Below are positions 4,775-61,402 of a stretch of 64,000 bases of DNA, in pieces. The DNA is from a virus. Lineage: Duplodnaviria > Caudoviricetes. The position numbers were made by a program, and so were the translations under genes. The notes below the pieces were generated by a model. It was not told the origin of the DNA, did not search any database, and saw only the letters and a list, made by a program, of their open reading frames with translations. The stretch lies in IMG/VR virus record IMGVR_UViG_3300002895_000002, positions 1 to 64,000 of that record; one strand, written 5' to 3'. Numbering within the stretch: position 1 is the stretch's first letter; each line of letters starts with the position of its first letter.

Positions 4775-4862
4775 ATAAATAGGTGTGAGTAGGGACAGCG
4801 GTTCCTGTGCCGTTGCTGATGTGCCACTAACACTCAGCTTACCTGCTCAATGTTATTTATAA
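4775..4862 (+). ncRNA. HEG-associated three-way-junction element, copy E1
   Basis: P1 GAGUAGG/CCUGCUC, GA, P2 CAGCGG/CCGUUG with loop UUCCUGUG, P3 CUGA/UCAG, CUUA. ATAAATA on + at the left end and TATTTAT at the right end. Confidence 0.8.
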
Positions 4863-4896
4863 AGAAAAACTCAAAACCTACTAAAGGAGATCAAAC

Positions 4897-5400
4897 GTGA
4901 ACAATTTCAAAACCGCTCTCACCACCCTCAACGAAGCCAAAAACATCGAAGACTTCATCATGAACGCAGGTGAGGGTGACTATGGTACTGTTCACCCTTC
5001 ACATAATCACAAATCCCTCACTGCAATCTATCATGCTGTTGGTGGTGATGACAAACACCCTGAGCTCAAGAAGATGGTTGCTGATCCCGAGCATGCCAAG
5101 ACAGTGATCGCCGCCAAGAAGGCTGAGGATAAGAAGGCCGCACCGAAAGCCCCCAAGGCACCGAAAGCAGACAAAGGACCTTCGGACACAATGACCAAGG
5201 GTGAGTATAAGAAAACCGTCAGGGATGCTGCAAAGGGGTGGAAAGCAGACAACCCGGGCGAAAATCTCAGCCAAGTTGCTCATGATCTGGCTCATGCAAT
5301 GCTCACCGACCCGAGGCTTCACAATCACATCAAGAAGCATTACGGGACCACTTCCAAAGAGCACGCTGCTCAGATTGTGGCGGATGACCTGTATAATTAA
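4897..5400 (+). CDS. Putative internal head protein (capsid-targeting-like N-terminus)
   Basis: MNNFKTALTTLNE start, Lys/Ala-rich, late context. Confidence 0.5.
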   Translation: MNNFKTALTTLNEAKNIEDFIMNAGEGDYGTVHPSHNHKSLTAIYHAVGGDDKHPELKKMVADPEHAKTVIAAKKAEDKKAAPKAPKAPKADKGPSDTMTKGEYKKTVRDAAKGWKADNPGENLSQVAHDLAHAMLTDPRLHNHIKKHYGTTSKEHAAQIVADDLYN

Positions 5401-5432
5401 GACTTGATAAATAACATCATGGGGAATTTACT

Positions 5433-5720
5433 ATGAGCCATTTCAATAAATTAAAGAGTCTTCTAAACGAAGATCGATGGAAAGATGCCTGGTTTGCTGA
5501 AGAAAAAGCAAATAAATCCAATCATCCCGACGACCACTATGACGCTGCGGTAAAATATATGCATGCCGCAGCTGAAGCAAACGGTATGGGTGCCAGCGTT
5601 CAGGAGATGTCATACCGGAACAAAGCTGCCATACACCTCAAAAAGTCAGGGAAATCTGAGATTGCTAAGGAACATCTTCCTTCTGTTGGGAGACCGCACA
5701 ATTACTCAATGGATTACTAA
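5433..5720 (+). CDS. Putative internal head protein
   Basis: MSHFNKLKSLLNE start; ATAAATA at about 5408. Confidence 0.5.
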   Translation: MSHFNKLKSLLNEDRWKDAWFAEEKANKSNHPDDHYDAAVKYMHAAAEANGMGASVQEMSYRNKAAIHLKKSGKSEIAKEHLPSVGRPHNYSMDY

Positions 5721-5737
5721 CCCACAGGAACATTATC

Positions 5738-6304
5738 ATGGCACTTGATTTTTCTATTGACAAGGAAGAGAAGAGAGGGAAGCCGGGCACTCTTCATGAA
5801 AATGATAACGCCAATCTTGGCATGAAACAACCCGTCGCTGACATGCTCTCCGAACAGATGGGGATGGAGCTTGAGAGCTCACAGATCTACATCGGCATGG
5901 CTGTGTGGTGTGATCAAGTGTCGTTGCTTGGTGCTTCCTCCTGGTTCATGAAACAAGGGGCCGAGGAGTACACTCACTATCAGAAGCTCTTGGCGTTCGC
6001 TATGGACTGTGGTAACTCCATCACTCTGCATCCAATCAACGGTGTAGAGACGGAATTTGATAGCCTGCTGGACTGTTTTGCGAAGACGGTTGAGCATGAG
6101 AAGACCGTCTGGCGTTCGCTCCAGAAGATATATGACGCCGCTCTCAAGGCCAATGACGTTGAGGTTCGTGTCCTGCTTGAGGGCTTCCTCCAGGAGCAGA
6201 TCGAGGAAGTTCGTACAGTGACGAATGTTTATAATAGGCTTAAACTTGTTGGTACTGATGGTACCGGCATTTTATTGATAGATCAAGAGCTAGGAAAACG
6301 ATAA
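5738..6304 (+). CDS. ftnA: Ferritin (non-heme, FtnA-like)
   Basis: Ferroxidase-type motifs EQMGMELESSQIY, EEYTH, HEKTV, FLQEQIEE. Confidence 0.85.
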   Translation: MALDFSIDKEEKRGKPGTLHENDNANLGMKQPVADMLSEQMGMELESSQIYIGMAVWCDQVSLLGASSWFMKQGAEEYTHYQKLLAFAMDCGNSITLHPINGVETEFDSLLDCFAKTVEHEKTVWRSLQKIYDAALKANDVEVRVLLEGFLQEQIEEVRTVTNVYNRLKLVGTDGTGILLIDQELGKR

Positions 6305-6957
6305 GCATTTTTCTATTTTGCTGATATTCTCTCAATTTTTGTTTTCTGCTGTCGGAACATGGTGTTCTTTGTGCGACTTTCCGAGCTTTTGCTGAAGCTG
6401 AAATGTTATTACGATGTTCTTCGGAAAACTGTCTTCCTTTCATTGCCTTAGAACGCAATAACTTTTGTTCTTCTGACATTGGTGCTCTTTTTGAAGTTTT
6501 TGGTTTTCTCATTTTTTCTTTAGTTTCTTCTGTATGCTTGAAGTTCTTTGCTCTTTTAGATATTTCTTCTTTGCGACGTTTTGCTTCTTCAAGACCAAAC
6601 ATTTCTTCGTATGTTTTTCCTTTATACGGAGCATTTTTTGCTGAATTTTTTGATATTTTATTTTTACTTTCAATGGAATGGGTTGAAGTATATTTTCCAC
6701 CCAACGTAAGATTATATGTGTCTATCCGCGATAAGAAATGCTCATCTACTATACATGCTTCCCATTCCAATACATCTTCACGCGATAGACAATAATGAAG
6801 AATAATTCGTTCGAAGTTTTCTTTTCCGTATTTCTTGATTGCCTTTTGAATGGATATCCCTAAACCAAGATAACCATCAAGTTTCCAAGTTGAATGAACA
6901 CCGACATAGATTTTTTTCATTGATGAGATTACGAGTGAGATAAACGATGTGCCACAT
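6240..6957 (-). pseudogene. GIY-YIG (Seg-like) homing endonuclease with NUMOD3 repeats; +1 frameshift in an A7 run at 6911-6917
   Basis: MWHIVYLTRNLINE(K)KIYVGVHST...GYLGLG; GAGGTG RBS before ATG 6957. The 3' end overlaps the ferritin 3' end in antisense. Confidence 0.8.
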
Positions 6958-6969
6958 GATTTCACCTCA

Positions 6970-7059
6970 ATAAATAGACATGGCAGGGACATCAGAGTTT
7001 CACCTCCTCTGTTGGTCATCGATTGCCGTCGTGACCTTACCTGCTATTCTATTTATAAA
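6970..7059 (+). ncRNA. HEG-associated three-way-junction element, copy E2
   Basis: P1 UGGCAGG/CCUGCUA, GA, P2 CAUCAGAG/CUCUGUUG with loop UUUCACCUC, P3 GUCA/UGAC, CUUA; opposed late promoters. Confidence 0.8.
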
Positions 7060-7103
7060 TTTGGAGTGAAAATCATCCTCATTGACCAGGAGCTTGGAAA
7101 ACG

Positions 7104-7491
7104 ATGAAAAATTTTGAGAAAATGATTGGGTTGCTTGAAGGTGTTGACAGAGAGCCAACTGCAGCACAAAAACACAAAGCTAAGATTGACGTTCTCAAGA
7201 AGCTGGGGTATAAGGTTACAGAAAGGGAAAATACCCCCCGGGAATCATAAAGCCTGGCTTTCTCATCCGAAGAGGAGTGATCACGATAGGGATGAGATTA
7301 AATCAGCCATAAGTTCTATCCCGGGATACTCTGCTGAATATGATAAAGGATTCGATCCTGATCGTCTCTATGTTCGTCGGAACGGTCAATCTATCGGACA
7401 CGTTGTTCTTCAAGGCGGTTCCAGTTTGTATGTCGGAACATACAAACACAATGTATCAGGAAAAGAAGCATCTTACGGCTACGATCGATAA
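7104..7491 (+). CDS. Putative internal head protein, apparent frameshift near 7222
   Basis: MKNFEKMIGLLE start at 7104 joins the called ORF (GKIPPGNHKAW...) if one A is removed. Confidence 0.4.
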
Positions 7492-7562
7492 CTAGATGTG
7501 ATATATGAAAAGCATTCCAAGATTCATACGTCAAACAACTTCGAAACAGAGGGCTACTAATA

Positions 7563-7823
7563 ATGAACAACTTTAGCAAACTGAAAACTCTCCTTGAGGA
7601 AACCCAACTCAAAGAGAGTTGGAAGTCATACGACCAAATCGCCGCAAATGCACATAAGGCATCTGAGCGTGCCGAATCCACTAATGACCCGGAAGACCAT
7701 AACTTGGCTGCTCGTCTTCATTCAGCAGCTGGTGTTGTTGCCCAAGGGCTCGGCAAAGTAAAGGAAGCCGAAGAGCACTATGGAAAATCCGAAAAACACG
7801 AAAAGAAATCCTGGGGATATTAA
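7563..7823 (+). CDS. Putative internal head protein, similar to 5433..5720
   Basis: MNNFSKLKTLLEE start; AA.LH..AA helix resembles the 5433 protein. Confidence 0.5.
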   Translation: MNNFSKLKTLLEETQLKESWKSYDQIAANAHKASERAESTNDPEDHNLAARLHSAAGVVAQGLGKVKEAEEHYGKSEKHEKKSWGY

Positions 7824-8271
7824 TGCTTCGGTTCGGTCAATTCATAACCGAAGACAGGGATAGAACAATCCTTACTCATAAGGGCTATTCTGTCATTCAT
7901 TCTGTTCATAGTCGTGAGCAACTCGTGAAGAGAAATCGCGATGAAGGGAAGTTGAACGATCGCCGGACTGACTATCTGTTCCGTAAGGCTGTTGATCACG
8001 CTATCGCTGATCCTTATCTTCACAACAAAGAGGCAATGTTCTACAGCAAGAGCGTTGATCATGCTTTCGTTGGTGCGGTGGATCATGAGAAAAACAAATT
8101 AGGGTTATCACATGGATGCCCCATCGGTCCAAGCATGATCCGCCAAAGGTTGACTGGACACCGCCGCACCCCGAGTGGAACAAAAATATCGTAATCTCCC
8201 AAAACAAGAAGACGGTCCCGGTATTGATGGAGGGTGGGGAACGAGAGATTGAGTTGATTGAGATAGATTAG
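7823..8271 (+). CDS. Hypothetical protein with capsid-targeting-like start, apparent frameshift at about 8096
   Basis: MLRFGQFITE start; adding one A continues as KIRVITWMPHRSK...EIELIEID*. Confidence 0.45.
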
Positions 8272-8302
8272 CCTCACCTGCCAAGCGTAGGAGGAGATAG
8301 AA

Positions 8303-8332
8303 GGTCGCCAGAAATGGCGGCCTTTTCATTTG
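8303..8332 (+). terminator. Rho-independent terminator
   Basis: AAGGTCGCC-AGAAAT-GGCGGCCTT followed by a T-rich tail. Confidence 0.65.
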
Positions 8333-8403
8333 ACGAAAATTTGATAAAAGTGTTGACATCCATCATCAGTTCTGTTATTATGGAAACATAACAAATTGGA
8401 GGA

Positions 8404-8667
8404 ATGAAAATGTTTAGATCTCACGAAGAATACGCCGATTCCCTTATTGACGAAGCATCTGAGATAGTACATCGGCTGCATAGTACCAACCGTGAAGTTT
8501 TCGGTCATGTTGACGAACAACACGCATACGACTTTCTGCGGTTGTTTATCTATAACAAGCCCAAATATAATCATCTTGCTACCGATGATGAGAAACTTGC
8601 TGCTTACGCAGCAGACTGTAATGCTGCCGATAAAGATTCTTACCACAACGCTCGTTACGCTCGATAG
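8404..8667 (+). CDS. Hypothetical early protein
   Basis: Promoter plus GGAGG RBS. Confidence 0.6.
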   Translation: MKMFRSHEEYADSLIDEASEIVHRLHSTNREVFGHVDEQHAYDFLRLFIYNKPKYNHLATDDEKLAAYAADCNAADKDSYHNARYAR

Positions 8668-10015: not shown

Positions 10016-10024
10016 GAGGACACT

Positions 10025-11681: not shown

Positions 11682-11726
11682 TAGGAGAAAGTCATGCGAA
11701 AACGCAAAGCACGAAAAAAGAATAAA

Positions 11727-11788
11727 AAAGATGTTGACAGGATAGGAAGAAGATAGTAAACTGGATTTACAAGTTGGATGGAACCGGA
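11727..11788 (+). repeat. Duplicated promoter and leader (copy 1; copy 2 at about 12160-12222)
   Basis: AAGATGTTGACAGG...GAAGAAGATAGTAAACTGGATTTACAAGTTGGATGGAACC is nearly identical in both copies. Confidence 0.85.
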
Positions 11789-12057
11789 ATACAACATCAG
11801 GTCCCAATATGGGTGCCGGTTCCAATAGTTCTCTAAAATTTCATACCCGCTCGGAAATCCGGACCAAGTGGTTGTTAACACGATAATACCACTAATGAGC
11901 AAATGGTTGGACTTGGTAACGGAATGCCTGTAAAAAATCACTGGGGGATTGGCTCACCCCCGGCACGATTTGCAAGAGGATGTTCCCTGCCGTCGGGAGC
12001 AAGGTGTTCATTGTCGATCCTCGGATGAGGGTTGATGCAAACACAGACGGCAAATTT

Positions 12058-12132: not shown

Positions 12133-12229
12133 AGAAACAAAAAGATAAAAAAGACAAAGAAGATGTTGACAGGAACTGAAGAAGATAGTAAACTGGATTT
12201 ACAAGTTGGATGGAACCAGAAGAAACTAG

Positions 12230-20230: not shown

Positions 20231-20485
20231 ATGAAACTGAAACCCTTTGAGCGGTTGTACACCATAGATGCGCCTCACTTCAACGCTGGTTGCATTGCAC
20301 CGATGGGTCAGAAAGTAACAGCAGCTGCCCCGATCATTCACTACATGGTCGGGTGGGACTACAACAAGATCGCCACGTACACGACGAAGAAGGGATGGAA
20401 GATGTCATTCCAAGATATCGACGTGTCGGAGGTAACGAATGAGAAGAAGCAGAAACCTCGTTCTCTTGTAGATTTTTTCGATTAG
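20231..20485 (+). CDS. Hypothetical protein
   Basis: ORF; 3' end converges on the HEG. Confidence 0.55.
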   Translation: MKLKPFERLYTIDAPHFNAGCIAPMGQKVTAAAPIIHYMVGWDYNKIATYTTKKGWKMSFQDIDVSEVTNEKKQKPRSLVDFFD

Positions 20486-21269
20486 GACTATTCTTGCAGT
20501 TATCGAAATGATAACGTTTCAGTCCATTAGTTCCGCCTTCTTTATTACAATAGGGGCACACACTTTTCGATTTAGGTTTTCTGAATTTTTCTTTTGCTTC
20601 TTCGGATAATGTTTTTCCTTTTAGGCTTGAACCTTTGCCGCGTCTTGCATTACCGATGTTTATTTTTGCACTATCCGATTTTGGTTTTCTGAGTTTTTGT
20701 TTTTGTTCTTCGGTCATCGGTCTAGACATTTTAAGTTTTGTTTCCTGGGTATGTGTTTTTCCTAACATTCCCATCGATGGTTTATTGATATTCCAATTTC
20801 TGATTTTTTCAATAGATTCGGGTTTATGTTTTCTACCTTTCCAAACAACATTACCAGTCGCAGCAACACTTAGTTTTTGTCGTGTTTCATCTGTAATGAC
20901 TTGTGTTTTCCTTGCATTTCTTATTTTTTCTTTTGTTTCATTTGAATGTGGACCGTGAGAATAATTCAATTTGAGCCAGGTATAATCTTTTGATGTATAC
21001 GTTCCGCATTCAGTCATTCGATTGAGCGCTGTTGCCATCTTCGGACCCTTGATCTTATGACCTCTCCATATACGAGCAAGAAGCAGATGAGCAATGAAAT
21101 GAGCTTTATGGGGTAGATGCACTCTGTTCCAACGACCATCAATGTCTTCAATGTTATCGACTTCAGCGAATGATTTTGGAATAATGTGATGGTTGTTGGT
21201 TTGAAATTTGACTTTTGGATGATTGATGTACTTGGTAATAAGCTGATCGTAAATGGACTGGTAATTCAT
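20334..21269 (-). CDS. HNH homing endonuclease, family copy 2 (NUMOD3 repeats plus C-terminal Zn ribbon)
   Basis: MNYQSIYDQLI...HHIIPK...WNRVHLP..HFIAHLLL; CPYC...HFDNC. Confidence 0.85.
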   Translation of the reverse strand: MNYQSIYDQLITKYINHPKVKFQTNNHHIIPKSFAEVDNIEDIDGRWNRVHLPHKAHFIAHLLLARIWRGHKIKGPKMATALNRMTECGTYTSKDYTWLKLNYSHGPHSNETKEKIRNARKTQVITDETRQKLSVAATGNVVWKGRKHKPESIEKIRNWNINKPSMGMLGKTHTQETKLKMSRPMTEEQKQKLRKPKSDSAKINIGNARRGKGSSLKGKTLSEEAKEKFRKPKSKSVCPYCNKEGGTNGLKRYHFDNCKNSPNRKNLQENEVSASSHSLPPTRRYLGMTSSIPSSSCTWRSCCSPTRPCSE

Positions 21270-21284
21270 GATTCACCTCAGAAA

Positions 21285-21366
21285 GGAGTGTGATGGGACA
21301 GCGGAGTTCACCTCCTCCGTTGGTTGAAGTCCCGCAACCTCAACCTAACCATCATATCTATTTATA
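21285..21366 (+). ncRNA. HEG-associated three-way-junction element, copy E3
   Basis: P1 UGAUGG/CCAUCA, GA, P2 CAGCGGAG/CUCCGUUG with loop UUCACCUC, P3 GUUGA/UCAAC, CUAA. The + strand late promoter is degenerate in this copy. Confidence 0.8.
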
Positions 21367-22043: not shown

Positions 22044-23279
22044 ATGACAAAAAAAGAATACCTTCAGAAAATGGTCGTGGAGCGGGTCCAACAAAACCTG
22101 CTCCGCGAATCAAACACCTCGGCTGATGCGGCTACGTTTGCAAAACTGAACCTGCCGCTCGTCAAGAAGATCTATCCGGACATGTTGGCGTCTCAGATCT
22201 GTGACGTCCAACCGTTGCATGGTCCGCGTGGCATCATCTCGGCTCTGTTCAGTTACTATAAACCAACCGAAGATGTCAATCTCGAGAACGCTCGGATCTT
22301 TGAGGTAGACACCACCGCAGGGTTAGTGACTGGACAGATTCAGGTTATTGGTGCAACGACCTGGCAGATCGAGTACATTGATGGCAGCGGAAAGGCGTTC
22401 CTTGCTATCGCTACTGTCGGCCCAAATGCTCCAGTTGCTCCTGGTACTGCGTTCGGTGCGGCGACGGTAATAATTACCACAATCAACCGGGCGTCTGTGA
22501 AGAAGATCTTCCGTCAGTATTCCGGACCGTACACCAACGACATCGTTGTTCCTCGTCAGATTGGACACGAGATCAGAACGATGACCGTTGAAGCTAAGTC
22601 CAGAAAGCTCAAGTCGGTTATCTCCAAAGAGAAAGTCCAAGACTGGGAGAGGATCTATGGTGAGAAGGCATACGACCTGATCGCTGAGAACCTGGGAAAT
22701 GAGATCATCCAGGAACTGGACATGGAGCTCATCGATTACATCAGGTCCATCGCTACTCCGATGCCGGACGTTGTTCTTTCCAACTCCTACGGTACCCAGG
22801 GCGATATGATGGCTGTTGGAAACGATCTGTATGTCAACATATTCTTCGCTGCGGAACAAATTGTAAAGGCAACCAAACGGAACAGGACGATCTTCATTCT
22901 CGCTGATGCAACAACGATCGGGTTGCTCCTGACCAACCCGCTCCATACGACAGTGAGTGACGACGAAGACAATCCGTTCTACGTCGGTAAACTGGGAACC
23001 TACAAGCTCTACGCAGATATCTACAGTGAAGACCATTATGTTGCTGTAGGTTATCGTGGTGAGAACCATGGGGATGGTGACACTGGTATCATCTACACCC
23101 CATACATGGACTACTTCCATCAGAGCACTGATCCCGAGACGTTTGCAGAGAAATTCCTCAGCATGTCCAGGTATACGTTCACCCGCCACCCGCAAGATCA
23201 AGGAACTGGCCTCGGTGATAGTGACTTCTTCAGATCTTTTGCTGTTGACCTTTCTGGTCTGAATAACTACACTCCCTGA
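22044..23279 (+). CDS. gp23/gp24-family capsid protein, probably head vertex protein (gp24-like)
   Basis: LPLVKKIYPDMLASQICDVQPLHGPRG, VEAKSRKLK and EIIQELDMELID motifs; stand-alone gene after a late promoter. Confidence 0.8.
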   Translation: MTKKEYLQKMVVERVQQNLLRESNTSADAATFAKLNLPLVKKIYPDMLASQICDVQPLHGPRGIISALFSYYKPTEDVNLENARIFEVDTTAGLVTGQIQVIGATTWQIEYIDGSGKAFLAIATVGPNAPVAPGTAFGAATVIITTINRASVKKIFRQYSGPYTNDIVVPRQIGHEIRTMTVEAKSRKLKSVISKEKVQDWERIYGEKAYDLIAENLGNEIIQELDMELIDYIRSIATPMPDVVLSNSYGTQGDMMAVGNDLYVNIFFAAEQIVKATKRNRTIFILADATTIGLLLTNPLHTTVSDDEDNPFYVGKLGTYKLYADIYSEDHYVAVGYRGENHGDGDTGIIYTPYMDYFHQSTDPETFAEKFLSMSRYTFTRHPQDQGTGLGDSDFFRSFAVDLSGLNNYTP

Positions 23280-25550: not shown

Positions 25551-26227
25551 ATGAGAAAGCAGAAAAAGTTTCATTACATCTATAAAATCACAAGAAACGA
25601 TGGGAAGTATTATATCGGTCTTCATTCAACCGATAACATTGATGATGGGTACTTTGGAAGTGGAAAGAGACTTCGTTACAGCATCAGGAAACATGGCAAG
25701 GAAGCACATACCAAGGAAATTATTGAGTTTCTACCTTCTCGTGAAGAACTGAAAAACGAGAAAGAGAATTGGTAAATGAAGAATGTGTTGCTGATCCGTT
25801 GTGTATGAATCTGAAACTCGGTGGAGAAGGTGGTTGGGACCATGTTAATAATGATATGTCTGAAGAAATACGAGAGAAAAGATTAAAAGGTAATACATTA
25901 GGTGGTAAAAATCGGTGGAATAATGTTTTAAGAAATCCGGAATTATTGGAAAAGCATAAACAAATTATTTTATATGCATTGGAATGTGCCAGAAAATCAC
26001 CTAATTATAAACCATTAAACGGAGATCAAACATATGCGAATTCTCCAGAAGCGAAGAAAAAACGCAAAGAAACAATGGCTAAAAACGGTCATCAACAAGG
26101 TGAGAAGAACAGCCAATTCGGAAAAATGTGGATAACCAATGGAAAAGAGTCAATGAAAATAATGAAAGATGATCTTATTCCTGAAGGTTGGCGAAAAGGA
26201 AGAATATGTGCGAGCATGGTGGAATGA
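25551..26227 (+). pseudogene. GIY-YIG (SegB-like) homing endonuclease, apparent -1 indel in an A run at about 25750-25756
   Basis: HYIYKITRNDGKYYIGLHSTD...YFGSG; adding one A gives REELKKRERELVNEE...MNLKLGGEGG; own TATAAATA promoter. Confidence 0.8.
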
Positions 26228-28060: not shown

Positions 28061-28645
28061 TTATTTCAACAATCTTCGTCTTAGATGGCCTTCGCTTATT
28101 TTCTTTTTTGTTTCTTCTGATCTAGGTCTTCTAAGTTTTGCTTTCGTTTCTTCTGATAATGGACCAGTCGATTTACCTTTCTTTGATTCACTTATTTTTC
28201 GTCTTGTTTCTTCTGACTTTGGTTGTCCATATTTTCCTCGTCGTGTTTCACTCATTTTTTGTCTTGTTTCTTTAGAAACGGCAGGTCTTTTCTTTGCAGA
28301 ATCTTTCATTTTCATTTTTGATTCTTCCGAATGTGAATAATTTAGTTTTAGACAAGAATATTTTCTAGAGTTATATGATTCATCCTTTTGCATAATGTTG
28401 ATTGCTCGAGCCATTTTAGGGCCTTTAACTTTGTGATGTTTCCATATACGGGCAAGAAGCAAATGTGCAATGAAATGAACTCGGTGTGGTAAATGAACAC
28501 GATTCCATCGTCCGTCAATGTCTTCAATGTTATCAATTTTAGCAAAGCACTGTGGGATGATGTGATGATCGTTAGTTTCAAACTTGACTTTTGGATGATC
28601 TTTGTATTTAGCGACGAGTTGATTGTAGATAGATTGGTAGTTCAT
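28061..28645 (-). CDS. HNH homing endonuclease, family copy 3
   Basis: MNYQSIYNQLV...HHIIPQ...HFIAHLLL; NUMOD3 repeats. Confidence 0.85.
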   Translation of the reverse strand: MNYQSIYNQLVAKYKDHPKVKFETNDHHIIPQCFAKIDNIEDIDGRWNRVHLPHRVHFIAHLLLARIWKHHKVKGPKMARAINIMQKDESYNSRKYSCLKLNYSHSEESKMKMKDSAKKRPAVSKETRQKMSETRRGKYGQPKSEETRRKISESKKGKSTGPLSEETKAKLRRPRSEETKKKISEGHLRRRLLK

Positions 28646-28663: not shown

Positions 28664-28750
28664 TATAAATAAGAATGGAACGGGGACAGTGGTTTCCTCA
28701 CCATTGGTTGTTGTTGGCAGACACAACCTTACCCGTTACTATATTTATAA
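28664..28750 (+). ncRNA. HEG-associated three-way-junction element, copy E4
   Basis: P1 AACGGG/CCCGUU, GA, P2 CAGUGGU/ACCAUUG with loop UUCCUC, P3 GUUG/CAAC, CUUA; opposed TATAAATA boxes. Confidence 0.8.
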
Positions 28751-29196: not shown

Positions 29197-29853
29197 ATGA
29201 GAATCATCATATATGCAATCATTCTCATTCTGCTATGTGCAGGCATTGGTGGGGCGTGTATGTCTTGTCATGCTGGACAGGTCAACGTTGCTGAGAAAGC
29301 AGTGAGCATCGCGAAGGGTTGGGTAGGAACGGTGGAGACACCATCCAACAGCAACCGTGGGAAGCTCATTGACGAGATGCATCGGTTCTATGGCATCCCC
29401 TACGGTAACCCTTACTGTGCCATGACTGTCGGGCTGGCATATCACAAGGCACATAACAGCATCGGGGTGAAAAGTCCGCTACCGAAGATCGCCCGGGTCA
29501 GCATGATCTACCGATGGGGCAACAATAACCCGCTGACTGTTAAGATGTTCACCCCTAAGACGGTGATGCTTGGTGCTGCCACTCTCAAGCCGGGTGACAT
29601 GATCATCTGGAAGAGCGGCACGAAGAGTATCAAGGAGAACTGGAATGGGCACGAAGGGATCACCCAAAAGCCTCTCCCGAAGAACCAGGTGCTGACTATC
29701 GAGGGAAACACCATGCCGAGCTCCAAAGGTGACCAACGAGAAGGTGGGGGTATCTGGGAGCGGACCAGGGGATATGGCTTGGGCACCAGCTTCGAGATCG
29801 TGGCGTTCATGCGTATAATTCACCAAACTTATAATGTATCCCCAACAAAATGA
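29197..29853 (+). CDS. CHAP-domain endolysin with N-terminal signal/anchor
   Basis: PYCAMTV (Cys), GHEGI (His) and TIEGNT motifs. Confidence 0.75.
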   Translation: MRIIIYAIILILLCAGIGGACMSCHAGQVNVAEKAVSIAKGWVGTVETPSNSNRGKLIDEMHRFYGIPYGNPYCAMTVGLAYHKAHNSIGVKSPLPKIARVSMIYRWGNNNPLTVKMFTPKTVMLGAATLKPGDMIIWKSGTKSIKENWNGHEGITQKPLPKNQVLTIEGNTMPSSKGDQREGGGIWERTRGYGLGTSFEIVAFMRIIHQTYNVSPTK

Positions 29854-30329
29854 TTGTTTTTCTTTGTTTTTCTTTGTTTTGCTGCGGCTGATATTTTTGC
29901 TTTAGTTTCTTCTGTGCGAACTTTTCCTCTATTAGCATTTGCTCTTTTTATTTTAGTTTCTTCAGATTGTATTCGTCCTTTACTCAAAGTTGATATTTTT
30001 GCTTTGGTTTCTTCTGAATAAGCGAAGTTCAATTTCAACCATTCATAAACTTTCGAGGTATATTTACTGTTAGACATCCGCCGAAACGCATATGCCATTT
30101 TCGGTCCTTTGGCTTTATGACCTCTCCATATACGATCAAGTAACAAATGGGCGATGAAATGTTCACGAAGCGGAAGATTGACTTTGTTCCACTTCCCATC
30201 AATGTCTTCTATTCCGTCAATCTTTGCGAATGACTTTGGGATGATATGATGACTATTGGTTTTACCTTTTATTCTGGGCGAGTCGATATGTTTAGCGATA
30301 ATTTGATCGTAGATAGACTGGTAATTCAT
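29829..30329 (-). CDS. HNH homing endonuclease, family copy 4
   Basis: MNYQSIYDQII...HHIIPK...HFIAHLLL; NUMOD3 repeats. Confidence 0.85.
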   Translation of the reverse strand: MNYQSIYDQIIAKHIDSPRIKGKTNSHHIIPKSFAKIDGIEDIDGKWNKVNLPLREHFIAHLLLDRIWRGHKAKGPKMAYAFRRMSNSKYTSKVYEWLKLNFAYSEETKAKISTLSKGRIQSEETKIKRANANRGKVRTEETKAKISAAAKQRKTKKNNHFVGDTL

Positions 30330-30346: not shown

Positions 30347-30433
30347 TATAAATAGAGTTGACGGGGACAACAGTTTCCTGGCTGCTGCTCATCGGTTGGC
30401 GCCGTGAGCTTACCCGTTCAATTCTATTTATAA
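30347..30433 (+). ncRNA. HEG-associated three-way-junction element, copy E5
   Basis: P1 ACGGG/CCCGU, GA, P2 CAACAGU/GCUGCUG with loop UUCCUG, P3 CUCA/UGAG, CUUA; opposed late promoters. Confidence 0.8.
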
Positions 30434-31811: not shown

Positions 31812-32006
31812 ATGATTTTCCTCGAATACCTCAAAGAACACCAAACCAAAGGCACCCATCTCAAGGTGTTTCTCACAAGCGGAGCAATGCTTGAGGGGAA
31901 AATCAAAGGTGCTGACGAATCCGGCATCATCCTCAATGAGTGTCTGATTATGCGTGACAAGATCGTTTCAATATCACCTCCTGTCAAGGGACCAATCAAG
32001 CGATAG
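31812..32006 (+). CDS. Hfq/Sm-like RNA-binding protein
   Basis: FLEYLKE..KVFLTSGAMLEGKIKGADESGIIL...LIMRDKIVSISP aligns by eye to the Hfq Sm1/Sm2 pattern; AAGGAG RBS. Confidence 0.6.
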   Translation: MIFLEYLKEHQTKGTHLKVFLTSGAMLEGKIKGADESGIILNECLIMRDKIVSISPPVKGPIKR

Positions 32007-49067: not shown

Positions 49068-50009
49068 ATGAAACATATTGGTACGAGTAGTTTATGGGTA
49101 GAAAAATACCGCCCAAGATGCGTCGCAGACTACCTGGCAACACCTAAGGTCAAATCAATTCTCGACCACATCATTCAGACCAACGACATTCCTCATCTCC
49201 TGCTCTACTCCAAGAGCCCAGGCACAGGTAAGACCACGTTCGCAAACGTGGTGGCTAAAGAGCTCGAATGTGACCTGCTCTACAAGAACGGGTCAATCGA
49301 CACTAGCATCGACAGCATCCGGTATGACGTGCAGCAGTTCACAATGACCAGCTCACTGATGGGTGGGAAGAAGCTCGTGGTGCTCGACGAGGCAGAGCGG
49401 CTCTCACAGAATGCCCAGGAAGCACTGAAAGTCCTGATGGAACAGTGTGAAGGAAACGCACGGTTCATCATCTGTACCAACAACATGCAACGGGTGGTGG
49501 CTCCGGTTATCAGTCGTTGTCAGATCGTTGAGTTTGACCATACTGAGGCGGACAAGCAAGCACTGATGATTCAGTATTTCAAGCGGGTCCAGTTCATCCT
49601 CTCCAACGAAGGAGTTGAGTACGACAAAGCAGTGCTCGCAGAGCTCATCAAGAAGCTCTACCCAGACCTTCGCAAGACTATCGGTCAGCTCCAGCAATTC
49701 TCCAAAACCCACAAGAGCATCACCCAAGAAGTGTTAGGTGATCTCGACGATAGTCAGACCCTGGATCTCGTTGCGAAGATGAAGGCAAAGAAGTTCGAAC
49801 CGATCCGAGCAGCCTGCAGTAACATTGACCCAAGTGGATTTTTCTCAACGTTCTATGCTGAGATATCAAATCTTCTTCAGCCAGAGTGCATTCCCGATAC
49901 AATTTTGATTTTAGCCAGGTACGCGAACACGCATTGCCTAACTACAGATACCGAAATAAATCTCGCGGCATGCATCGTTGAGCTCATGTCAACCATCAAG
50001 TGGAAATAA
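49068..50009 (+). CDS. 44: Clamp loader large subunit (gp44)
   Basis: LWVEKYRP, SPGTGKTT, VLDEAE, SRC motif. Confidence 0.95.
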   Translation: MKHIGTSSLWVEKYRPRCVADYLATPKVKSILDHIIQTNDIPHLLLYSKSPGTGKTTFANVVAKELECDLLYKNGSIDTSIDSIRYDVQQFTMTSSLMGGKKLVVLDEAERLSQNAQEALKVLMEQCEGNARFIICTNNMQRVVAPVISRCQIVEFDHTEADKQALMIQYFKRVQFILSNEGVEYDKAVLAELIKKLYPDLRKTIGQLQQFSKTHKSITQEVLGDLDDSQTLDLVAKMKAKKFEPIRAACSNIDPSGFFSTFYAEISNLLQPECIPDTILILARYANTHCLTTDTEINLAACIVELMSTIKWK

Positions 50010-50910
50010 TTACAGAAGATTCTATCCGGAGAGACCAACCAGGTGTTGAAGAAAGTCTCCGGATAGAATCTTTCTTTTTCAAACCAGGGCTGATATTGAT
50101 TGGAGGGACAACAGTTCCTTTGTTGGCTAGGAGCTGTTTTGGTGATAGGAGATGCTCATTACAGAAATCCCAAAGATCTGCCGTTTTAAATTCCTTACCA
50201 TCAGGGCTGGTTAGTATATAGAGTTTATTTGTTATCCTTATGTTTTTGCCTTGGGTCTTTTCCGGCAATGGGCTGAATTGATTTGGGGCATCATATAGTT
50301 CGGACAACAACCATCCTTCGGTGTTCATGAGACGTTGGACTGAATTTGGTTTGTGTAGGCCCAATGGAATTTCGATTTTTGGGACAACAGATCCAAGATG
50401 AGCCAAGAGATGCTTAGGAGAAAGGGTTAGGTGAGTACACCACTGAATCAGGTCATTGATTAGATATTCATTGCCATTTGGGTCTGTGAGATTGTAGAAT
50501 TTTTTATTGTGTGGTGTCGATCCTTTTATGAATGGTTTCATTCTTTCTCTGATTTGTGGTTGGTTTGTTATTTTCCCTTGATAGTTTGGGTTATTTTCTC
50601 CGGATCGAAACCCAGAACCGCCCGGAATTTGATTATAAGTGTCTGTTCTAGATATAAACCAGTCATCAACAATCATTTTTTCTAGTTCATAGGCGTGTTC
50701 ATCCGATAAAGCTTCGTGAAGAATTATTCGTTCGAAGTTTTCTCGGCCATAAAGTTTGATTGCATCAGAAATTATGGTTCCGGACCCAAGGTATGGATCA
50801 CTTTTGGTATGAGAAGAATGTTTTCCAACGTAGATTTTACCGTTGATCTTATTGCGGATGAGATAAACGAAATGATAGACTGGGTCTTTTTTACCACGAC
50901 GGGAACGCAT
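49996..50910 (-). CDS. GIY-YIG (Seg-like) homing endonuclease with duplicated C-terminal domain
   Basis: HFVYLIRNKINGKIYVGKHS...YLGSG...YNQIPGG; two LT(D/S)P(N/D)G.E repeats. Confidence 0.85.
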   Translation of the reverse strand: MRSRRGKKDPVYHFVYLIRNKINGKIYVGKHSSHTKSDPYLGSGTIISDAIKLYGRENFERIILHEALSDEHAYELEKMIVDDWFISRTDTYNQIPGGSGFRSGENNPNYQGKITNQPQIRERMKPFIKGSTPHNKKFYNLTDPNGNEYLINDLIQWCTHLTLSPKHLLAHLGSVVPKIEIPLGLHKPNSVQRLMNTEGWLLSELYDAPNQFSPLPEKTQGKNIRITNKLYILTSPDGKEFKTADLWDFCNEHLLSPKQLLANKGTVVPPINISPGLKKKDSIRRLSSTPGWSLRIESSVIIST

Positions 50911-50923
50911 GACATTCACCTCA

Positions 50924-51012
50924 ATAAATAGATGTGACGGGGACAGTGGAGTTTCACCTCCTCCATTGGTTGTCAGTGCCACCTGCAACCTTACCTGTTC
51001 CTTTTATTTATC
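50924..51012 (+). ncRNA. HEG-associated three-way-junction element, copy E6
   Basis: P1 GACGGG/CCUGUU, GA, P2 CAGUGGAG/CUCCAUUG with loop UUUCACCUC, P3 GUUG/CAAC, CUUA; opposed late promoters. Confidence 0.8.
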
Positions 51013-51046
51013 ATTTCCCAAAAAATAAAGAAAATAGAGTCAACTA

Positions 51047-51226
51047 ATGAATAAAGAAATGAAGATCAGATGTCAGGTTTGTGGGGAATGGATTCCTGTT
51101 CGTTATATTCACGAGCATGTTGATTGGCAACACCAGGTCAATACTGAATACCATAGTTACATCATGAGTTTAACAATCGAACAGATATTAGAAAATTCCA
51201 AGAATCAATTCCAGATTAGAATTTGA
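51047..51226 (+). CDS. Small Zn-finger-like hypothetical protein
   Basis: Manual translation: MNKEMKIRCQVCGEW...HEHVDWQH. Confidence 0.4.
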   Translation: MNKEMKIRCQVCGEWIPVRYIHEHVDWQHQVNTEYHSYIMSLTIEQILENSKNQFQIRI

Positions 51227-52208: not shown

Positions 52209-52210
52209 CC

Positions 52211-56509: not shown

Positions 56510-57537
56510 AGTATCAAAAGTTCAAATACATACCCAGCACTTTTTGTTGCTTCCCATTTAGCATTGTTCCTATCAACATCTTGGGTAGCTGTATATAATG
56601 ATTTTACTTCGATAATAAGATTTTCCGATGGGATGAAAATATCAGGATAATATCGCCGATGTTTTCCTTCAAAGGTGTACATGATTTTGGGTATACGGGA
56701 TTTTTCGACAATGATATCATCCTCTGAATATCACTCAAGCAACAGATCCAGAGCTTTTGGTTCATTACCTTGGACACGAACAATTTTGCCGGACGGAAAT
56801 GTATATTGCTTTTGAGAAAACCAATCCCTCCGGTCAAGATACTCCGGTACGTGCATGTTACTTTCTACTCCGTATCTATCCATTAGACTCTGTCTGCTTT
56901 TTATTCTGAACTCGGGAGTTGACATAAAGAAACGATTCCCGTGGTTTTGTAGGTTTGACTCTTCGACCTTTTGTTGAATATTTTTGTTTTGGAATGGAAA
57001 CTCGACACCATATCTTTCTTGATTTGTTTTGGTAATTCTTGCTCTCAATATAGGGCTATTCATGGGACCAGAGCCACCATACCGTTCAATCATAGTGTCA
57101 GTGCCCTTTTTCTTTATTTCTGGGTTTTTATTATGATGAGACACCCCATATCGTTCTTCACATGTTTGCTTTGCTCCGGATCTATTATTATACGTTTCCG
57201 AACCATGTCTTTCTAGTAAGGTTTGTTTCCGTTTATCATTCCATTCTTTGCCTCTGCTCCGGCAAGAATGTGAACAGTAGGTTTCTTTATAGGGGACAGT
57301 TGCGGAACAGAATTTTGTTATTGGCTGGTTACATGTTGGGCAGATTTTAGGATAATCAGACCAATCGTTTAGGATCCAAACAATCCGCTCTATTATATTG
57401 TCACTTTTACATTTTTGGGTTGATGTGAATATTTCATGTTTTATTTCTTCAGGACATTGTTTGACTTTTGAAGGATTTATGCCTCTGGAATGAAATAAAT
57501 TATTTCTAATAAATGTTTTCAAATCAAGTCCGCTCAT
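56506..57537 (-). pseudogene. Homing endonuclease-like gene (Zn ribbon, ERYG repeats, C-terminal PD-(D/E)XK domain) interrupted by an in-frame TGA at 56731-56733
   Basis: After LLLE* the frame continues YSEDDII...RRYYPDIFIPSENLIIEVKS...FELLIL*; TATAAATA upstream on the - strand. Confidence 0.75.
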
Positions 57538-57609
57538 GTGATGCCTTTCTTGACGACAATGTGTAATCATGTTATTATTTATAAAACTTGAACAAAAAAG
57601 GAGTATATT

Positions 57610-58671
57610 TTGACTAAGACAGAAATAGAAAATAGAATCAAGGAGATACAGAATCAGCTGGCCGCAATGGACGCAATGCAACAATCCATAAAAATCCTTA
57701 TGAATAGCGCGTATGGTGCCTTTGGTAACCAGCACTTCCGGTATTTCGATATCCGCATAGCGTCTGGTATCACCACTGCAGGTCAGGTTACGATCCGTGG
57801 AGTGTCTCAATATTGTGAGAGCAAGATACCGTTGCTGTCGAACATCTACAACGACACAGACTCGATCTTTCTGGCCCTGGAGCCGATGGTCAAGAAGCGT
57901 TTCCCGAATGGTGCTTCAATCAAGGAGACAGCAGATTTTATTCTCAAGCTCTCTGATCAGGTTATCTCTCCCACGATAGAGGAATACTTTACCAGACTGA
58001 GCAAGAACCTCAACATGCGAATCTTGACTATATCACTGGAGCCTGAGTGCATCTCAGACGTCTGTTTCTTCAAGGCAAAGAAAAAGTATGCCATGAAGCA
58101 AACCTGGGTAGAAGGGTCGTGGTATCTGGACAAGACTAAGCTGAAGATCAAAGGTATTGAGATTGTCCGGACGTCAACACCTCAGTTCTGTCGGGATACA
58201 TTGAAGAAGGCTGTTGAGCTTATCTTCGAAACCCAGGACAACCAGACAGTGGTTGACTATATCAAGAAGGTTAAGGAAGAGTTCCTTCAGCTCCCGTTCG
58301 AACAGAAGGCCTTCCCGCGTGGAGTGAATGGGATTGATAAGCATCAGATTGGTGGACCCGGCATACCCATTCACGTCAGAGCGGCATTGATCTACAACAA
58401 TGCAATCAAGTCCATGAAGCTAACGAAGAAATATCCCCTGATTGCTGAGGGGAATAAGCTCTTGTTTGGGTTTATCAAGACACCCAACAAGCTCGGGACT
58501 GAGGTTATTGCATGTCCCGAAAAGATGCCTGAAGAGATTCTCAGCATGATTGAGATGGACGATGAGGTTCAATTCGAGAAGGCATACCTCTCCCCGATCA
58601 TGAGTATATTTGAAGCGATAGGGTGGCACTTGGAAAAGAAACAACAGAGCCTGGAAGATTTCTTCGGGTAG
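57610..58671 (+). CDS. 43: B-family DNA polymerase, C-terminal subunit (gp43B-like)
   Basis: KILMNSAYG motif B, YNDTDSIF motif C, KKKY, KIKGIE. Confidence 0.92.
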   Translation: MTKTEIENRIKEIQNQLAAMDAMQQSIKILMNSAYGAFGNQHFRYFDIRIASGITTAGQVTIRGVSQYCESKIPLLSNIYNDTDSIFLALEPMVKKRFPNGASIKETADFILKLSDQVISPTIEEYFTRLSKNLNMRILTISLEPECISDVCFFKAKKKYAMKQTWVEGSWYLDKTKLKIKGIEIVRTSTPQFCRDTLKKAVELIFETQDNQTVVDYIKKVKEEFLQLPFEQKAFPRGVNGIDKHQIGGPGIPIHVRAALIYNNAIKSMKLTKKYPLIAEGNKLLFGFIKTPNKLGTEVIACPEKMPEEILSMIEMDDEVQFEKAYLSPIMSIFEAIGWHLEKKQQSLEDFFG

Positions 58672-58680
58672 AAAGGAACG

Positions 58681-58923
58681 ATGATGGCTAACCCACCAAA
58701 TTCAGCGAATGGAATAGGAATGTCGTACAATTACAACGAGGGAACATACCACTTCCGGGAAAGTAATATCGACGTGAGTTATATCCCGAAAGAGAAGCTT
58801 GACCCAGCTTTCGTGAATACTGTGGATGCTCTGACAACGGTCATTCGTCATCAACAATCCGAGATTGAGCGGTTGACGAAGATGGTGAACGAGCTCTATT
58901 TTCCAATGAGGAGCCGCGAATGA
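58681..58923 (+). CDS. Hypothetical protein
   Basis: ORF with RBS. Confidence 0.5.
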   Translation: MMANPPNSANGIGMSYNYNEGTYHFRESNIDVSYIPKEKLDPAFVNTVDALTTVIRHQQSEIERLTKMVNELYFPMRSRE

Positions 58924-59171
58924 GTGAGATAAAGATGCCGGAACTTATCACTCCAACACCACAAACCGACCGCCATACAAAAGGGTTTGACCGTCATGCC
59001 CCCAGACAGATTGGATTTTCAGAGAGAACCCCTCTGAGAAACGGGCCGACCCTTGCTGATTGGGAGGCTGCGGTCCTTACCGGTCAGGTTGGGGATAAGA
59101 CCATGACTGACGAGCTGATCAAAAAGCTCCAGGAAGAAGAAAAACCACAGATGCTGACAGAAAAGATTTGA
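58920..59171 (+). CDS. Hypothetical protein
   Basis: ATGA-coupled ORF. Confidence 0.5.
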   Translation: MSEIKMPELITPTPQTDRHTKGFDRHAPRQIGFSERTPLRNGPTLADWEAAVLTGQVGDKTMTDELIKKLQEEEKPQMLTEKI

Positions 59172-59227
59172 CACCCAACCCCCTTCATGTTATTATTGAA
59201 TTACAATAAAGACATGAAGGGGTTACA

Positions 59228-59817
59228 ATGAACACCACTGCATTTGATGAATTCTTTCAAGTAACCAGCAAATATGAGGCGGTCATTCACGTTCGTTTGT
59301 TTAGAATGATCGAAGCATACATCACCAACCACACCGATGAGCTCGGACGGGTGTCCTTTCCAAGCGATCCCTGGTCACGTGTTCCCTACAACTTCACTAT
59401 GACATCATCACCAGACATGCGGTGGTTAAAAACAAACTTGCCAACCGGGACTTCACCGTTGAGAGCGGCCGGCGGTACTTCACTCTGCTGGATGATTGGC
59501 GGACCCCTGTCATGGTTCGGATCCTTAAAGAGGCTGAAGCAATTGTTGCTGGGTGGCAAATGAAGATGAAAGACAAGCTGGAACTCATCTTCAAACACCG
59601 TGACGACCCGGAAGGATTTGAAGCAGTCGGAACCCACGATCAGGGAATGTTCAGGGTACACTTCAAAAACGGTGACTCCTTTACCGTTCAGAATAAGATG
59701 ATCATCAACGTCAGCAAGAACGGTAAACTGTTCAATCAGTGGCCCTGTACTTTTGGAAACATCAAAAAAGGTGGGGGAGTTGTACAAGAAACAATCCGAG
59801 AAATGGATGAAGTCTGA
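59228..59817 (+). CDS. Hypothetical early protein, apparent frameshift in the A5 run at about 59426
   Basis: Adding one A joins RWLK to NKLANRDF. Confidence 0.5.
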
Positions 59818-60027
59818 ATTCTAAGGAGCTATTTTGAGAGACTACAGGGATCAAGGCATCAAGGGATTAGCACCTGACCAACTCAGGTATCTCTTCGAGG
59901 AGGAGATTTACCCTGCCGCAAAAGGCATGCCGTTCAGGGAAGCCGATAACAAGTATGAAGAACGCATTTTGAATTTTGGCTATCAGTGCTTCATCCGTGG
60001 TGTCAAGCTCGGAAAGGAGCGGTTCAG

Positions 60028-60369
60028 ATGAGCAAGAAAACCTATCAGATACCCTTTGACTTTGAAGGGAACCAACTGGCTTATCCTGATTCCAGATACA
60101 ACCCAAACACGCGGACCTGGGATACTATCTGGAAAGACAACTACTTCTTTGAAGCTACACTTACCTATGATGGGTTCAGCCGCGGTCGCTCTGCTGCTGG
60201 TTTCGATCTGAAGGATGAGGAAGGACATCTCTACTACCTGATGATGTCCGAGATGGACCGTATCATGGCTCTTGGTGGCTGGGATGGCAATAAGATCACT
60301 GGGAAATGGACCTTCGTCAAGAAAGGTCAGAACTACGGGATCACGCTGATAGAGAGGGCCGAGAGATGA
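60028..60369 (+). CDS. Hypothetical protein
   Basis: AAAGGAG RBS before MSKKTY. Confidence 0.6.
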   Translation: MSKKTYQIPFDFEGNQLAYPDSRYNPNTRTWDTIWKDNYFFEATLTYDGFSRGRSAAGFDLKDEEGHLYYLMMSEMDRIMALGGWDGNKITGKWTFVKKGQNYGITLIERAER

Positions 60370-60642
60370 TCGAAGGAGCCGCTCTTCTTGGAAAGCTCGT
60401 CCTCACACTGGTGCTCTACCTGAACGTGGCATATCTCATGGCAGAGCTCATCAAGAAAAATCGGGGTGACTGATGAAAGTCATGATAGCTGGTGGATCCG
60501 TGCATAGAGCCGAGATCGTAAGGAGAATTATGGACACGATGGAGAAGGACGGGATTACATCTACGCCGGGGTGCTTGAACTGGCGGTGCTGGGTGAACGC
60601 ATCACAAGTGACACCATGGAACAGTACGATCTCTAGGAGGCA

Positions 60643-61299
60643 TCATTGATAATGAAGATGCATGGCTAAGATAATTATAAGTTCCTTTCTTTCTCGTGCT
60701 AATCTTTTATGTGTAGCTGACATTTTATTTTTAGTTTCTTCTGAAATTATCTGTTTTGCCCGGGCTTCCTTGATTTTATTTTTAGATTCATCTGAATGTT
60801 GTTTTCCAAAGAACGAATTTTTATTTCCTTTGTGGGAATCGCTTTGTTGTTTGATGTAGTCCTCGGAATAGGCATACCCATTTGCAAATTTAGAATGCCT
60901 GGTTTTTGATATTTTTTGTTTAGTGCTTTCGGATTGAATGTAACCCATTTTAGCATCAGATATTTTTTGTTTATGTTCGTCTGAATGTGAATAATTTATT
61001 CGTAAAAGTAAATAATCTTTTGACCCATATCTCTTACAATTTGTCATTCTTAGAATTGCTTTAGCCATTTTTGGGCCTTTGACTTTATGGCCACGCCAGA
61101 TACGAGCAAGAAGCAGATGGGCAATGAAGTGTTCCCTGATGGGTAGATTGACTCTGTTCCATGAACCATGTATATCTTCTATTCCATCAAGCTTTGCAAA
61201 CGACTTTGGAATAATGTGATGACTTTCGGTTTGTTTTTTGATCTTGGAAGTGTTTCAGTTGTGTTCAATAAGACGGTCGTAAATGGACTGGTAATTCAT
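60643..61299 (-). pseudogene. HNH homing endonuclease, family copy 5, with in-frame TGA at codon 15 (61255-61257)
   Basis: MNYQSIYDRLIEHN*NTSKIKKQTESHHIIPK...HFIAHLLLARIWRGHKVKGPKMAK in a single frame. Confidence 0.85.
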
Positions 61300-61310
61300 G
61301 ACAGTTCCCC

Positions 61311-61402
61311 TATAAATAGATGTGACGAGGACAGCAGGGAAGTTCCCCTCTCTGTTGGTCGTGTACGCCCATACCGACCTTACTCGTTCTATTCTATTTA
61401 TA
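61311..61402 (+). ncRNA. HEG-associated three-way-junction element, copy E7
   Basis: P1 GACGAG/CUCGUU, GA, P2 CAGCAGGGA/UCUCUGUUG with loop AGUUCCCC, P3 GUCG/CGAC, CUUA; opposed TATAAATA boxes. Confidence 0.8.

Follow-up and report, generated by a model that had tools for sequence, protein, structure and literature searches.

A covarying three-way junction between facing late promoter boxes, a candidate IS10-like antisense brake on mobile nuclease genes of T4-like phages

What is the role of a structured element which stands, copy after copy, in front of the homing-type nuclease genes of one and the same phage? This question is raised by the first 64 kb (hereafter the window) of a 213,116-base-pair (bp) phage contig (IMG/VR record IMGVR_UViG_3300002895_000002; GC 45.6%), in which seven copies of the element lie between positions 4,775 and 61,402. 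Judged by its structural genes and UvsW the phage is T4-like: a Gp23-family capsid protein, a tail sheath, a T4 scaffold protein, a T4 baseplate protein and UvsW are encoded, and 11 transfer RNA (tRNA) genes lie within the window. An initial annotation had described the element as a three-way junction, bracketed by two opposed late promoters and folding in the sense that is antisense to the endonuclease gene. We argue that it may be an antisense brake similar to that of IS10, serving as the 5' control module of mobile nuclease cassettes in T4-like phages, and we regard the chances of this reading as about even.

Copies were searched for with motif scans, pattern scans and a covariance model, R1, which was trained on the + strand. 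The 213-kb genome holds 16 copies of about 85 bases each, 16/16 on the + strand, with R1 scores of 61-98 bits on that strand and 19-25 bits at the same sites on the minus strand, and the seven copies reported earlier were all found at their places. Eight further copies sit in unrelated phage contigs of lower GC from IMG/VR and metagenomes (L037, L025, L035, L020, L015, L045, L099 and L175), and the R1-fitted alignment of these 24 sequences was used for the covariation analysis. A near-identity search of the phage collection gave no close relatives of the phage, a protein search with its ligase gave distant matches only, and a second IMG/VR pattern in which the right box was required added one further copy only.

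The conserved and covarying three-way junction of the initial annotation is seen in two alignments. Plain MAFFT alignment recovered P1, P2 and P3 with compensatory change in 13/17 pairs, and the 24-sequence alignment showed it in 14/19 pairs. In the latter, paired cells amounted to 95.4% versus 69.8 ± 1.4% in shuffles (0/500), and the cells changed on both sides to 117 versus 31 ± 5 in shuffles (0/500) and 6-21 in slid controls; fitting of the alignment to the model inflates the pairing percentage, not the compensatory counts relative to the slid controls. The stems quoted earlier are present as P1 GAGTAGG/CCTGCTC, TGATGG/CCATCA and GACGAG/CTCGTT, and as P3 CTGA/TCAG versus GTTG/CAAC. Three more compensatory double changes (5538/5555, 5566/5579 and 5568/5577) were noticed in a variant of the L015 module from salt-lake metagenome contigs. 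The architecture is P1-GAC-P2-P3-UUA-P1', with junction strands of 3, 0 and 3 nucleotides (nt), and the junction letters, which had been called invariant, are constant or nearly so, as GGGAC(A) and C(T/C)TA(A/C)C. The second P2 pair (alignment column pair 26-49) is Watson-Crick in 0/24 copies, being G.U in 15, A.C in 5, U.U in 3 and A.G in 1. An Rfam 15 scan gave only tRNAs above the gathering score, and two copies of the element examined at E <= 10 gave only noise; the element is a putative RNA family which has not been described before.

Some side observations belong to this junction. The pairs neighbouring 26-49 (in the window, for example, 50946 with 50966) covary normally, and the same non-Watson-Crick G.U is also found in three nuclease-less relatives. 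At L120:1508-1660, L151:612-770 and L087:2860-3014 (minus strand) a related junction (GGGACAG with G.U) immediately follows a tRNA gene, and no nuclease gene accompanies it. Its P2 apex, TTGCTG or TTGCAG, is complementary to CAGCAA or CTGCAA, the loop of a hairpin which lies on that strand some 40 nt further downstream; one compensatory change is seen.

The position of the element is as constant as its fold. All 16 genome copies lie directly 5' of, and in the leader of, a minus-strand gene for a homing-type nuclease, either HNH-like with NUMOD3 repeats or one of two kinds of GIY-YIG, and in all 16 the right box places a late-promoter motif immediately upstream of the endonuclease open reading frame (ORF). 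In the window the left ATAAATA is present in 6/7 copies (the copy at 21280 has AGAAAGG) and the right TATTTAT in 7/7. Late promoters in T4-like cyanophages and in T4 have the sequences NATAAATA and TATAAATA (PMC2984593), and NATAAATA is the late-promoter motif of the present phage. Leaving the elements aside, we counted 68 copies of ATAAATA on the + strand and 7 on the minus strand, and the elements contribute 16 of the 23 minus-strand copies. A Shine-Dalgarno (SD) sequence and a start codon follow within 80 nt after 44/68 of the + copies (65%) versus 23% of random positions, most commonly at 17-22 nt, and the genes behind the motif include those for the Gp23-family capsid, sheath, scaffold, baseplate and tail-collar proteins. 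The boxes, which both point inward, thus conform to the late promoter motif of T4, as claimed earlier, and this motif is strand-biased and placed ahead of late structural genes.

The geometry of the boxes is also narrowly kept. They face each other 65-75 bp apart in 22/24 copies; the distance from the left box to the first P1 base is exactly 5 nt in 21/24, and that from the right box to the last P1 base is 3-7 nt. T4 late transcripts start about 6 nt past the box. From these distances and this rule, both transcripts are predicted to begin at the base of P1, and overlapping, face-to-face late transcripts across the junction are a fair and well-founded prediction. Pairing of the two boxes with each other, as a mere stem, was considered as the main cause of their conservation and rejected: the boxes are sequence-invariant and do not covary, and the copy at 21280 folds without its left box.

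The observation that points most directly to an antisense role lies in the P2 loop. On the + strand the P2 apex is a second copy of 5-9 nt from the + sequence that separates the left box from the nuclease start codon, and the copied stretch is complementary to the SD and spacer in the cognate nuclease messenger RNA (mRNA). The summed cognate match was 174 versus 114.5 ± 5.9 when permuted, with a maximum of 142 in 100,000 permutations (p <= 1e-5), and the predicted duplex had a mean of -13.4 kcal/mol for cognate versus -8.5 kcal/mol for non-cognate combinations. Loop and site covary across at least 10 sequence types, non-SD-like ones (ACCGAT, CTTATTCT) included, and they change jointly in close relatives, with CCCCT/CCCCT in the copy at 61312 versus CCCTT/CCCTT in that at 206394. 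The window loops are TTTCACCTC in copies 2, 3 and 6 (the matched stretch being TTCACCTC in 3 and 6), AGTTCCCCT in copy 7, and TCCTGT, TCCTC and TCCTG in copies 1, 4 and 5, respectively; elsewhere in the genome we found GTTCCCTT, ATTCTCCC, GTGACTCC and GGTTTCTCC, and in other phages ATAGCTCC, CTTATTCT, GTTTCCTT, CCTCTAT, ACCTCA and ACCGAT. The identity enters the spacer and extends to non-SD-like sequences, two properties which base pairing of the + loop with the minus-strand mRNA calls for and which mimicry of a ribosome-binding site does not. When the 80 nt downstream on the + strand were searched for a P2-loop target, the mean match was 5.1 nt, about background. Complementarity to the translation initiation region of the target, which is looked for in an antisense RNA, is present here through a second copy of the sequence and not through overlap. 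The antisense role proposed initially for the + RNA is supported by this loop, complementary to the cognate ribosome-binding site, and not by the wobble argument on which it had been built. A leader peptide following the loop copy was rejected, as no conserved start codon follows it and an ATG is found only in the copy at 6970.

From the sequence we infer that both promoters are active and that two RNAs exist, pair and bring about repression, in the following manner. The right box would act as the minus-strand late promoter for the nuclease mRNA, of which the first ~65 nt would form the junction, with the ribosome-binding site and then the start codon behind it. Between that site and the junction lies the left box, which would be a + strand late promoter whose RNA starts with the mirror-image junction. 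This + RNA would not overlap the ribosome-binding site, its P2 loop carrying instead the separately encoded complement of the cognate SD and spacer. It would pair with the nuclease mRNA through contact of the loop with the ribosome-binding site and through loop-loop contacts with the mirror fold, and the pairing would lower the translation or the stability of a potentially harmful nuclease, as RNA-OUT of IS10 does with RNA-IN. In most contexts the + transcript would continue into the next + gene and so restore late transcription downstream of the insertion.

Several observations weigh against such a brake. The loop match is only 4-6 nt in 8/24 copies, and the flanking mismatches are wobble-compatible in 23 versus 26 cases, with no bias for RNA-RNA pairing. 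No hairpin-plus-U-run was seen after the element when the sequence was read by eye, with no dedicated terminator scan, and a discrete small antisense RNA is not evident. The full duplex of the two junctions, which is the thermodynamic end state, leaves the ribosome-binding site free, and therefore occlusion would have to be kinetic or to proceed via cleavage. Intact elements stand beside broken nuclease genes, in the window at 6240-6957 and 60643-61299 and outside it next to the copies at 101144, 108277 and 143180, which suggests a role beyond nuclease control. Also, the nuclease genes of the + strand (25551 and 211949 by tblastn; also 120128, 156279 and 208729) have a plain box only, and one minus-strand HNH-like gene, at 98101-98424, is junction-less. 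It is because of the short matches, the missing terminator, the lack of wobble bias, the free site in the full duplex and the elements beside dead genes that we hold the antisense model no higher than about evenly poised.

The initial annotation had held that G-U wobbles work only in the + sense, which was not borne out by the column distribution, the folding energy or a natural variant; both strands fold into the junction. In the consensus helices, read in the + sense, G.U occurs 36 times versus 10 for A.C, 29/36 of the G.U falling in two columns, outside which the counts are 7 versus 4. At column pair 13-93, where P1 has its outermost pair and each transcript its predicted +1 nucleotide, the G.U excess can be explained without pairing because a purine at +1 on both strands would give the same pattern; column pair 26-49, never Watson-Crick, is non-canonical on either strand. 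In 16/24 copies the core reaches its lower minimum free energy on the minus strand (mean difference 0.39 kcal/mol; Wilcoxon p = 0.44), and the minus-strand fold is markedly more stable in L015 and its variant. In the L015 variant T5563>C makes a C.A mismatch on the + strand and a G.U on the minus strand, and only the minus strand still forms the junction. Selection on the fold may concern both RNAs. The strand-specific reading is to be dropped, while the structural and promoter observations stand.

That both strands fold equally well would also be expected if the element were a bidirectional late-promoter cassette with a 5' stabiliser, in which the boxes drive the nuclease and the downstream host gene, the junction shields the 5' ends of the transcripts from 5'-end-dependent ribonucleases, and the likeness of loop and ribosome-binding site has no pairing role. 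The predicted starts at the P1 base on both sides fit this explanation, as does the survival of elements next to broken nuclease genes. The next + gene or early promoter comes 16-276 nt after the element, in many copies the + transcript would enter the gene that follows after 16-70 nt, and endonuclease cassettes of T4 are known to embed promoters for downstream genes (PMC2988022). We nevertheless consider the explanation unlikely. It leaves the covarying loop match, the invariant junction letters and the pair that is never Watson-Crick unexplained, and any stable hairpin would serve as a shield, yet a specific three-way junction is kept across distant phages. Moreover, L037 and L099 have no downstream + gene to be driven; there the + RNA would lead into no gene, which argues for a regulatory RNA.

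If it were the minus-strand RNA alone that mattered, the fold in the leader of the nuclease mRNA would present in its loop a copy of the ribosome-binding site, as a standby or decoy site or as a STAB-SD-like stabiliser, and the + RNA would be irrelevant. Any expression of the nuclease requires the minus RNA, its fold is the more stable one in the majority of copies and markedly so in L015 and its variant, as given above, and most loop copies contain an SD-like purine run. This device is quite unlikely in our judgement: the identity spans the spacer, which the ribosome does not read, and holds for the non-SD-like ACCGAT in L025, the loop copy has no conserved start codon after it, and the conserved left box would have no explanation.

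The junction could also be a platform for a protein, with GGGAC, CUUAC and the non-canonical pair bound by a phage or host protein, for which the nuclease as an autorepressor on DNA, an Hfq-like protein and a ribosomal protein are candidates. Invariant junction letters and a pair 26-49 that is never Watson-Crick are what such binding could produce, autorepression of I-TevI at its late promoter is documented (PMC2988022), and a weak Hfq-like ORF is present in the window. The junction is not the own operator of each nuclease, because it is common to nucleases of unrelated families; we find the platform improbable as a replacement for the antisense model, with which it could coexist. The ORF in question, at 31812-32006 (+), encodes 64 amino acids (aa) with an Sm/Hfq-like PF17209 match of 22.9 bits (cut-off 27; E 1.4e-5), and may be the 'phage Hfq-like protein' to which the initial annotation referred.

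A self-cleaving ribozyme, for which the same annotation had left room, or a fold of single-stranded DNA in homing or replication has next to no likelihood, for nothing more than a compact junction with invariant unpaired letters speaks for either, no Rfam family, ribozymes included, matched even at E <= 10, and the element sits at the cassette edge and not at a recognisable cleavage or target site. A hammerhead-like core was examined and rejected, as junction strands of 3, 0 and 3 nt do not fit it.

Returning to the antisense brake, we asked how far the element behaves as a unit of its own. With one exception, the likeness between paralogous cassettes ends 0-24 nt past the right box. The salt-lake variant shares with L015 only 5494-5609, that is the ribosome-binding site, left box, junction and right box, and the DNA differs on both sides, including the N-terminus of the GIY-YIG-like protein. 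By these cassette boundaries and this variant, the module, including its own ribosome-binding site, is a discrete unit. The genes behind it in relatives are for TnpB (L020), DUF7487 (L025), a treble-clef zinc-finger protein (L175), HNH with NUMOD3 (L099) and GIY-YIG (L015, L045). Twelve IMG/VR loci that encode relatives of the HNH-like nuclease lack the element, which is therefore not tied to that protein family. It is possible, though we would place it somewhat short of even, that the module is a portable and re-programmable antisense unit, made of a fixed junction scaffold, facing late promoters and one variable loop matched to the ribosome-binding site; with the same reserve, this unit of about 115 nt might be swapped among unrelated mobile nucleases (HNH, GIY-YIG, TnpB and others), giving each of them a private translational brake.

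The exception to the sharp right boundary is formed by copies 6 and 8, whose elements are near-identical and which are alike for about 217 nt rightward (51045-51130 in the window and 64500-64590 in the genome, + strand); their shared flank includes a small Cys-rich ORF starting MNKEMKIRCQVCGEW. The TnpB gene lies at L020:1719-3026 (OrfB_IS605 with a Cas12f1-like TNB), and there the loop CCTCTAT matches the region before the start.

Individually, the window copies and their nuclease genes are as follows. Copy 1 (4775-4860, +; R1 74.5 bits) consists of the left box 4775-4781, P1 4787-4793 with 4842-4847, P2 4797-4814, P3 4815-4838 and the right box 4854-4860. It is the leader of a 200-aa HNH-like homing endonuclease gene with NUMOD3 (4151-4753, -; translation and Pfam NUMOD3), whose SD AGGAGAC stands 8 nt ahead of the ATG, and its P2 loop TCCTGT (4803-4808) recurs at 4764-4769, next to the start of that gene. 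Copy 2 (6970-7056, +; 88.3 bits; boxes 6970-6976 and 7050-7056) has the P2 loop TTTCACCTC (6998-7006), identical to 6960-6968, and leads into a GIY-YIG and NUMOD3 endonuclease gene (6240-6957, -), which by tblastn is 58% identical to the GIY-YIG copy at 106852 and whose frame is broken in an A7 run after 26 codons. This run lies in 6877-6957 (-), and six A would let the conserved NEKIYVG motif read through; the break may be a sequencing error, decay or slippage.

Copy 3 (21280-21365, +; 61.2 bits) has the degenerate left box AGAAAGG, the junction CCTAAC and a right box at 21359-21365; its P2 loop TTCACCTC (21307-21314) is identical to 21272-21279, and it is the leader of a 311-aa HNH-like endonuclease gene with NUMOD3 (20334-21269, -; translation and Pfam), with the Gp23-family capsid gene (22044-23279, +) as neighbour. 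Copy 4 (28665-28748, +; 78 bits; boxes 28665-28671 and 28742-28748) carries the loop GGTTTCCTC against GGTCTCCTC beside the start, a match with one U.G-compatible difference, and belongs to an HNH-like gene with NUMOD3 of 194 aa (28061-28645, -). Copy 5 (30348-30431, +; 85.5 bits; boxes 30348-30354 and 30425-30431), in which the second P2 pair is A.C, precedes another such gene, of 166 aa (29829-30329, -). Copy 6 (50924-51011, +; 92 bits; boxes 50924-50930 and 51005-51011) has the loop TTCACCTC (50953-50960), identical to 50915-50922, and a SegE-like GIY-YIG endonuclease gene of 304 aa (49996-50910, -). Copy 7 (61312-61401, +; 94.1 bits; boxes 61312-61318 and 61395-61401), with the loop AGTTCCCCT (61341-61349) identical to 61303-61311, is the leader of a broken HNH-like gene with NUMOD3 (60643-61299, -), in which a stop comes after 14 codons and 60643-61068 is still open; tblastn covers 61299-60976 of it. 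Copy 8 lies just past the window edge (genome 64380-64469, +), in the leader of a GIY-YIG-like gene of a third type (259 aa; genome 63588-64367), the 3' part of which is in the window (63588-64000, -).

With regard to orientation, the junction is present at 16/17 minus-strand nuclease genes of the genome and at 0 of the 2-5 + strand genes found. This minus-orientation rule is not universal, since L037 and L099 break it, their nuclease genes being co-oriented with the neighbours, yet the module is present. The + strand nuclease or NUMOD3 genes, of which 25551-25775 (+) is inside the window, have ATAAATA 17-34 nt before the start and no junction; the gene at 211949 is 72% identical to a window HNH-like copy and shares the ribosome-binding region AACTGTC-ATG with copy 7. 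The leader of the 98101-98424 gene (region 98101-98467) has two facing late boxes 36 nt apart and is a natural junction-less variant. Other repeated features of the window are early promoters of a sigma-70-like family, TTGACA-N17-TATTAT with a conserved GGAAACATAA stretch after it (repeat families D3-D8; + strand, at 1925, 8350, 9645, 16798, 23505, 32028, 44293 and 59165), and a 75-nt direct repeat, 89% identical and holding a TTGACA-like promoter, at 11715-11789 and 12147-12221 (+) in the tRNA cluster.

Among known systems, the closest comparison is the control of transposase by the RNA-IN/RNA-OUT pair of IS10/Tn10, as recounted in PMC5006887 (citing Simons and Kleckner 1983; Ma and Simons 1990). 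Common to IS10, in that account, and to the present module are the nuclease or transposase gene of a mobile element with two opposed promoters at its 5' end (here predicted), and an outward RNA complementary to the initiation region of the inward mRNA, which would block ribosome binding; an Hfq-type helper is conceivable here too. Unlike IS10 as described there, the outward RNA predicted here misses the ribosome-binding site, whose complement is encoded again in the junction loop, a short RNA is not delimited by a terminator, late promoters of the phage are used, and the carrier is a homing endonuclease cassette and not a transposon. A further transposase under antisense control is that of IS200, through art200 (PMC4513863); in these accounts the antisense RNAs of IS10 and IS200 overlap the target site and are discrete small RNAs, unlike the present module. 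In T4-like phages an antisense transcript tied to a homing endonuclease gene, here predicted, is known as CfrI of cyanophage S-PM2 (Millard et al. 2010, reviewed in PMC2984593). Unlike the present module, CfrI is described in that review as a single RNA of ~225 nt, antisense to the endonuclease gene and psbA, and no repeated structured unit or matched loop figures in the description.

Leader hairpins with an embedded late promoter control I-TevI, I-TevII, I-TevIII, segB and mobE of Aeh1, while that of seg43(25) is non-sequestering (PMC2988022). The T-even leaders and the present module have in common their occurrence in T4-type phages, a late promoter that immediately precedes the endonuclease gene, a leader occupied by a stable RNA structure and, presumably, the aim of restricting nuclease synthesis. 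Unlike those leaders, in which the site is sequestered in transcripts from upstream promoters, neither the junction nor the box-box helix of the minus strand takes in the SD here, and a three-way junction and a second, facing putative promoter are present. The nuclease genes of the present phage oppose the direction of their neighbours, as T4 segD does.

Restraint of free-standing homing endonucleases is known mainly from the leader hairpins of T4. If the antisense reading is true, a second restraint, based on RNA-RNA contact, would be common to unrelated nuclease families and to phages of differing GC, and the element would represent a new RNA family with a new cis-antisense logic, the complement being encoded outside the overlap. 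A scaffold with a programmable loop could serve as a compact synthetic regulator, and the element is usable as a marker to find and delimit nuclease cassettes in phage metagenomes.

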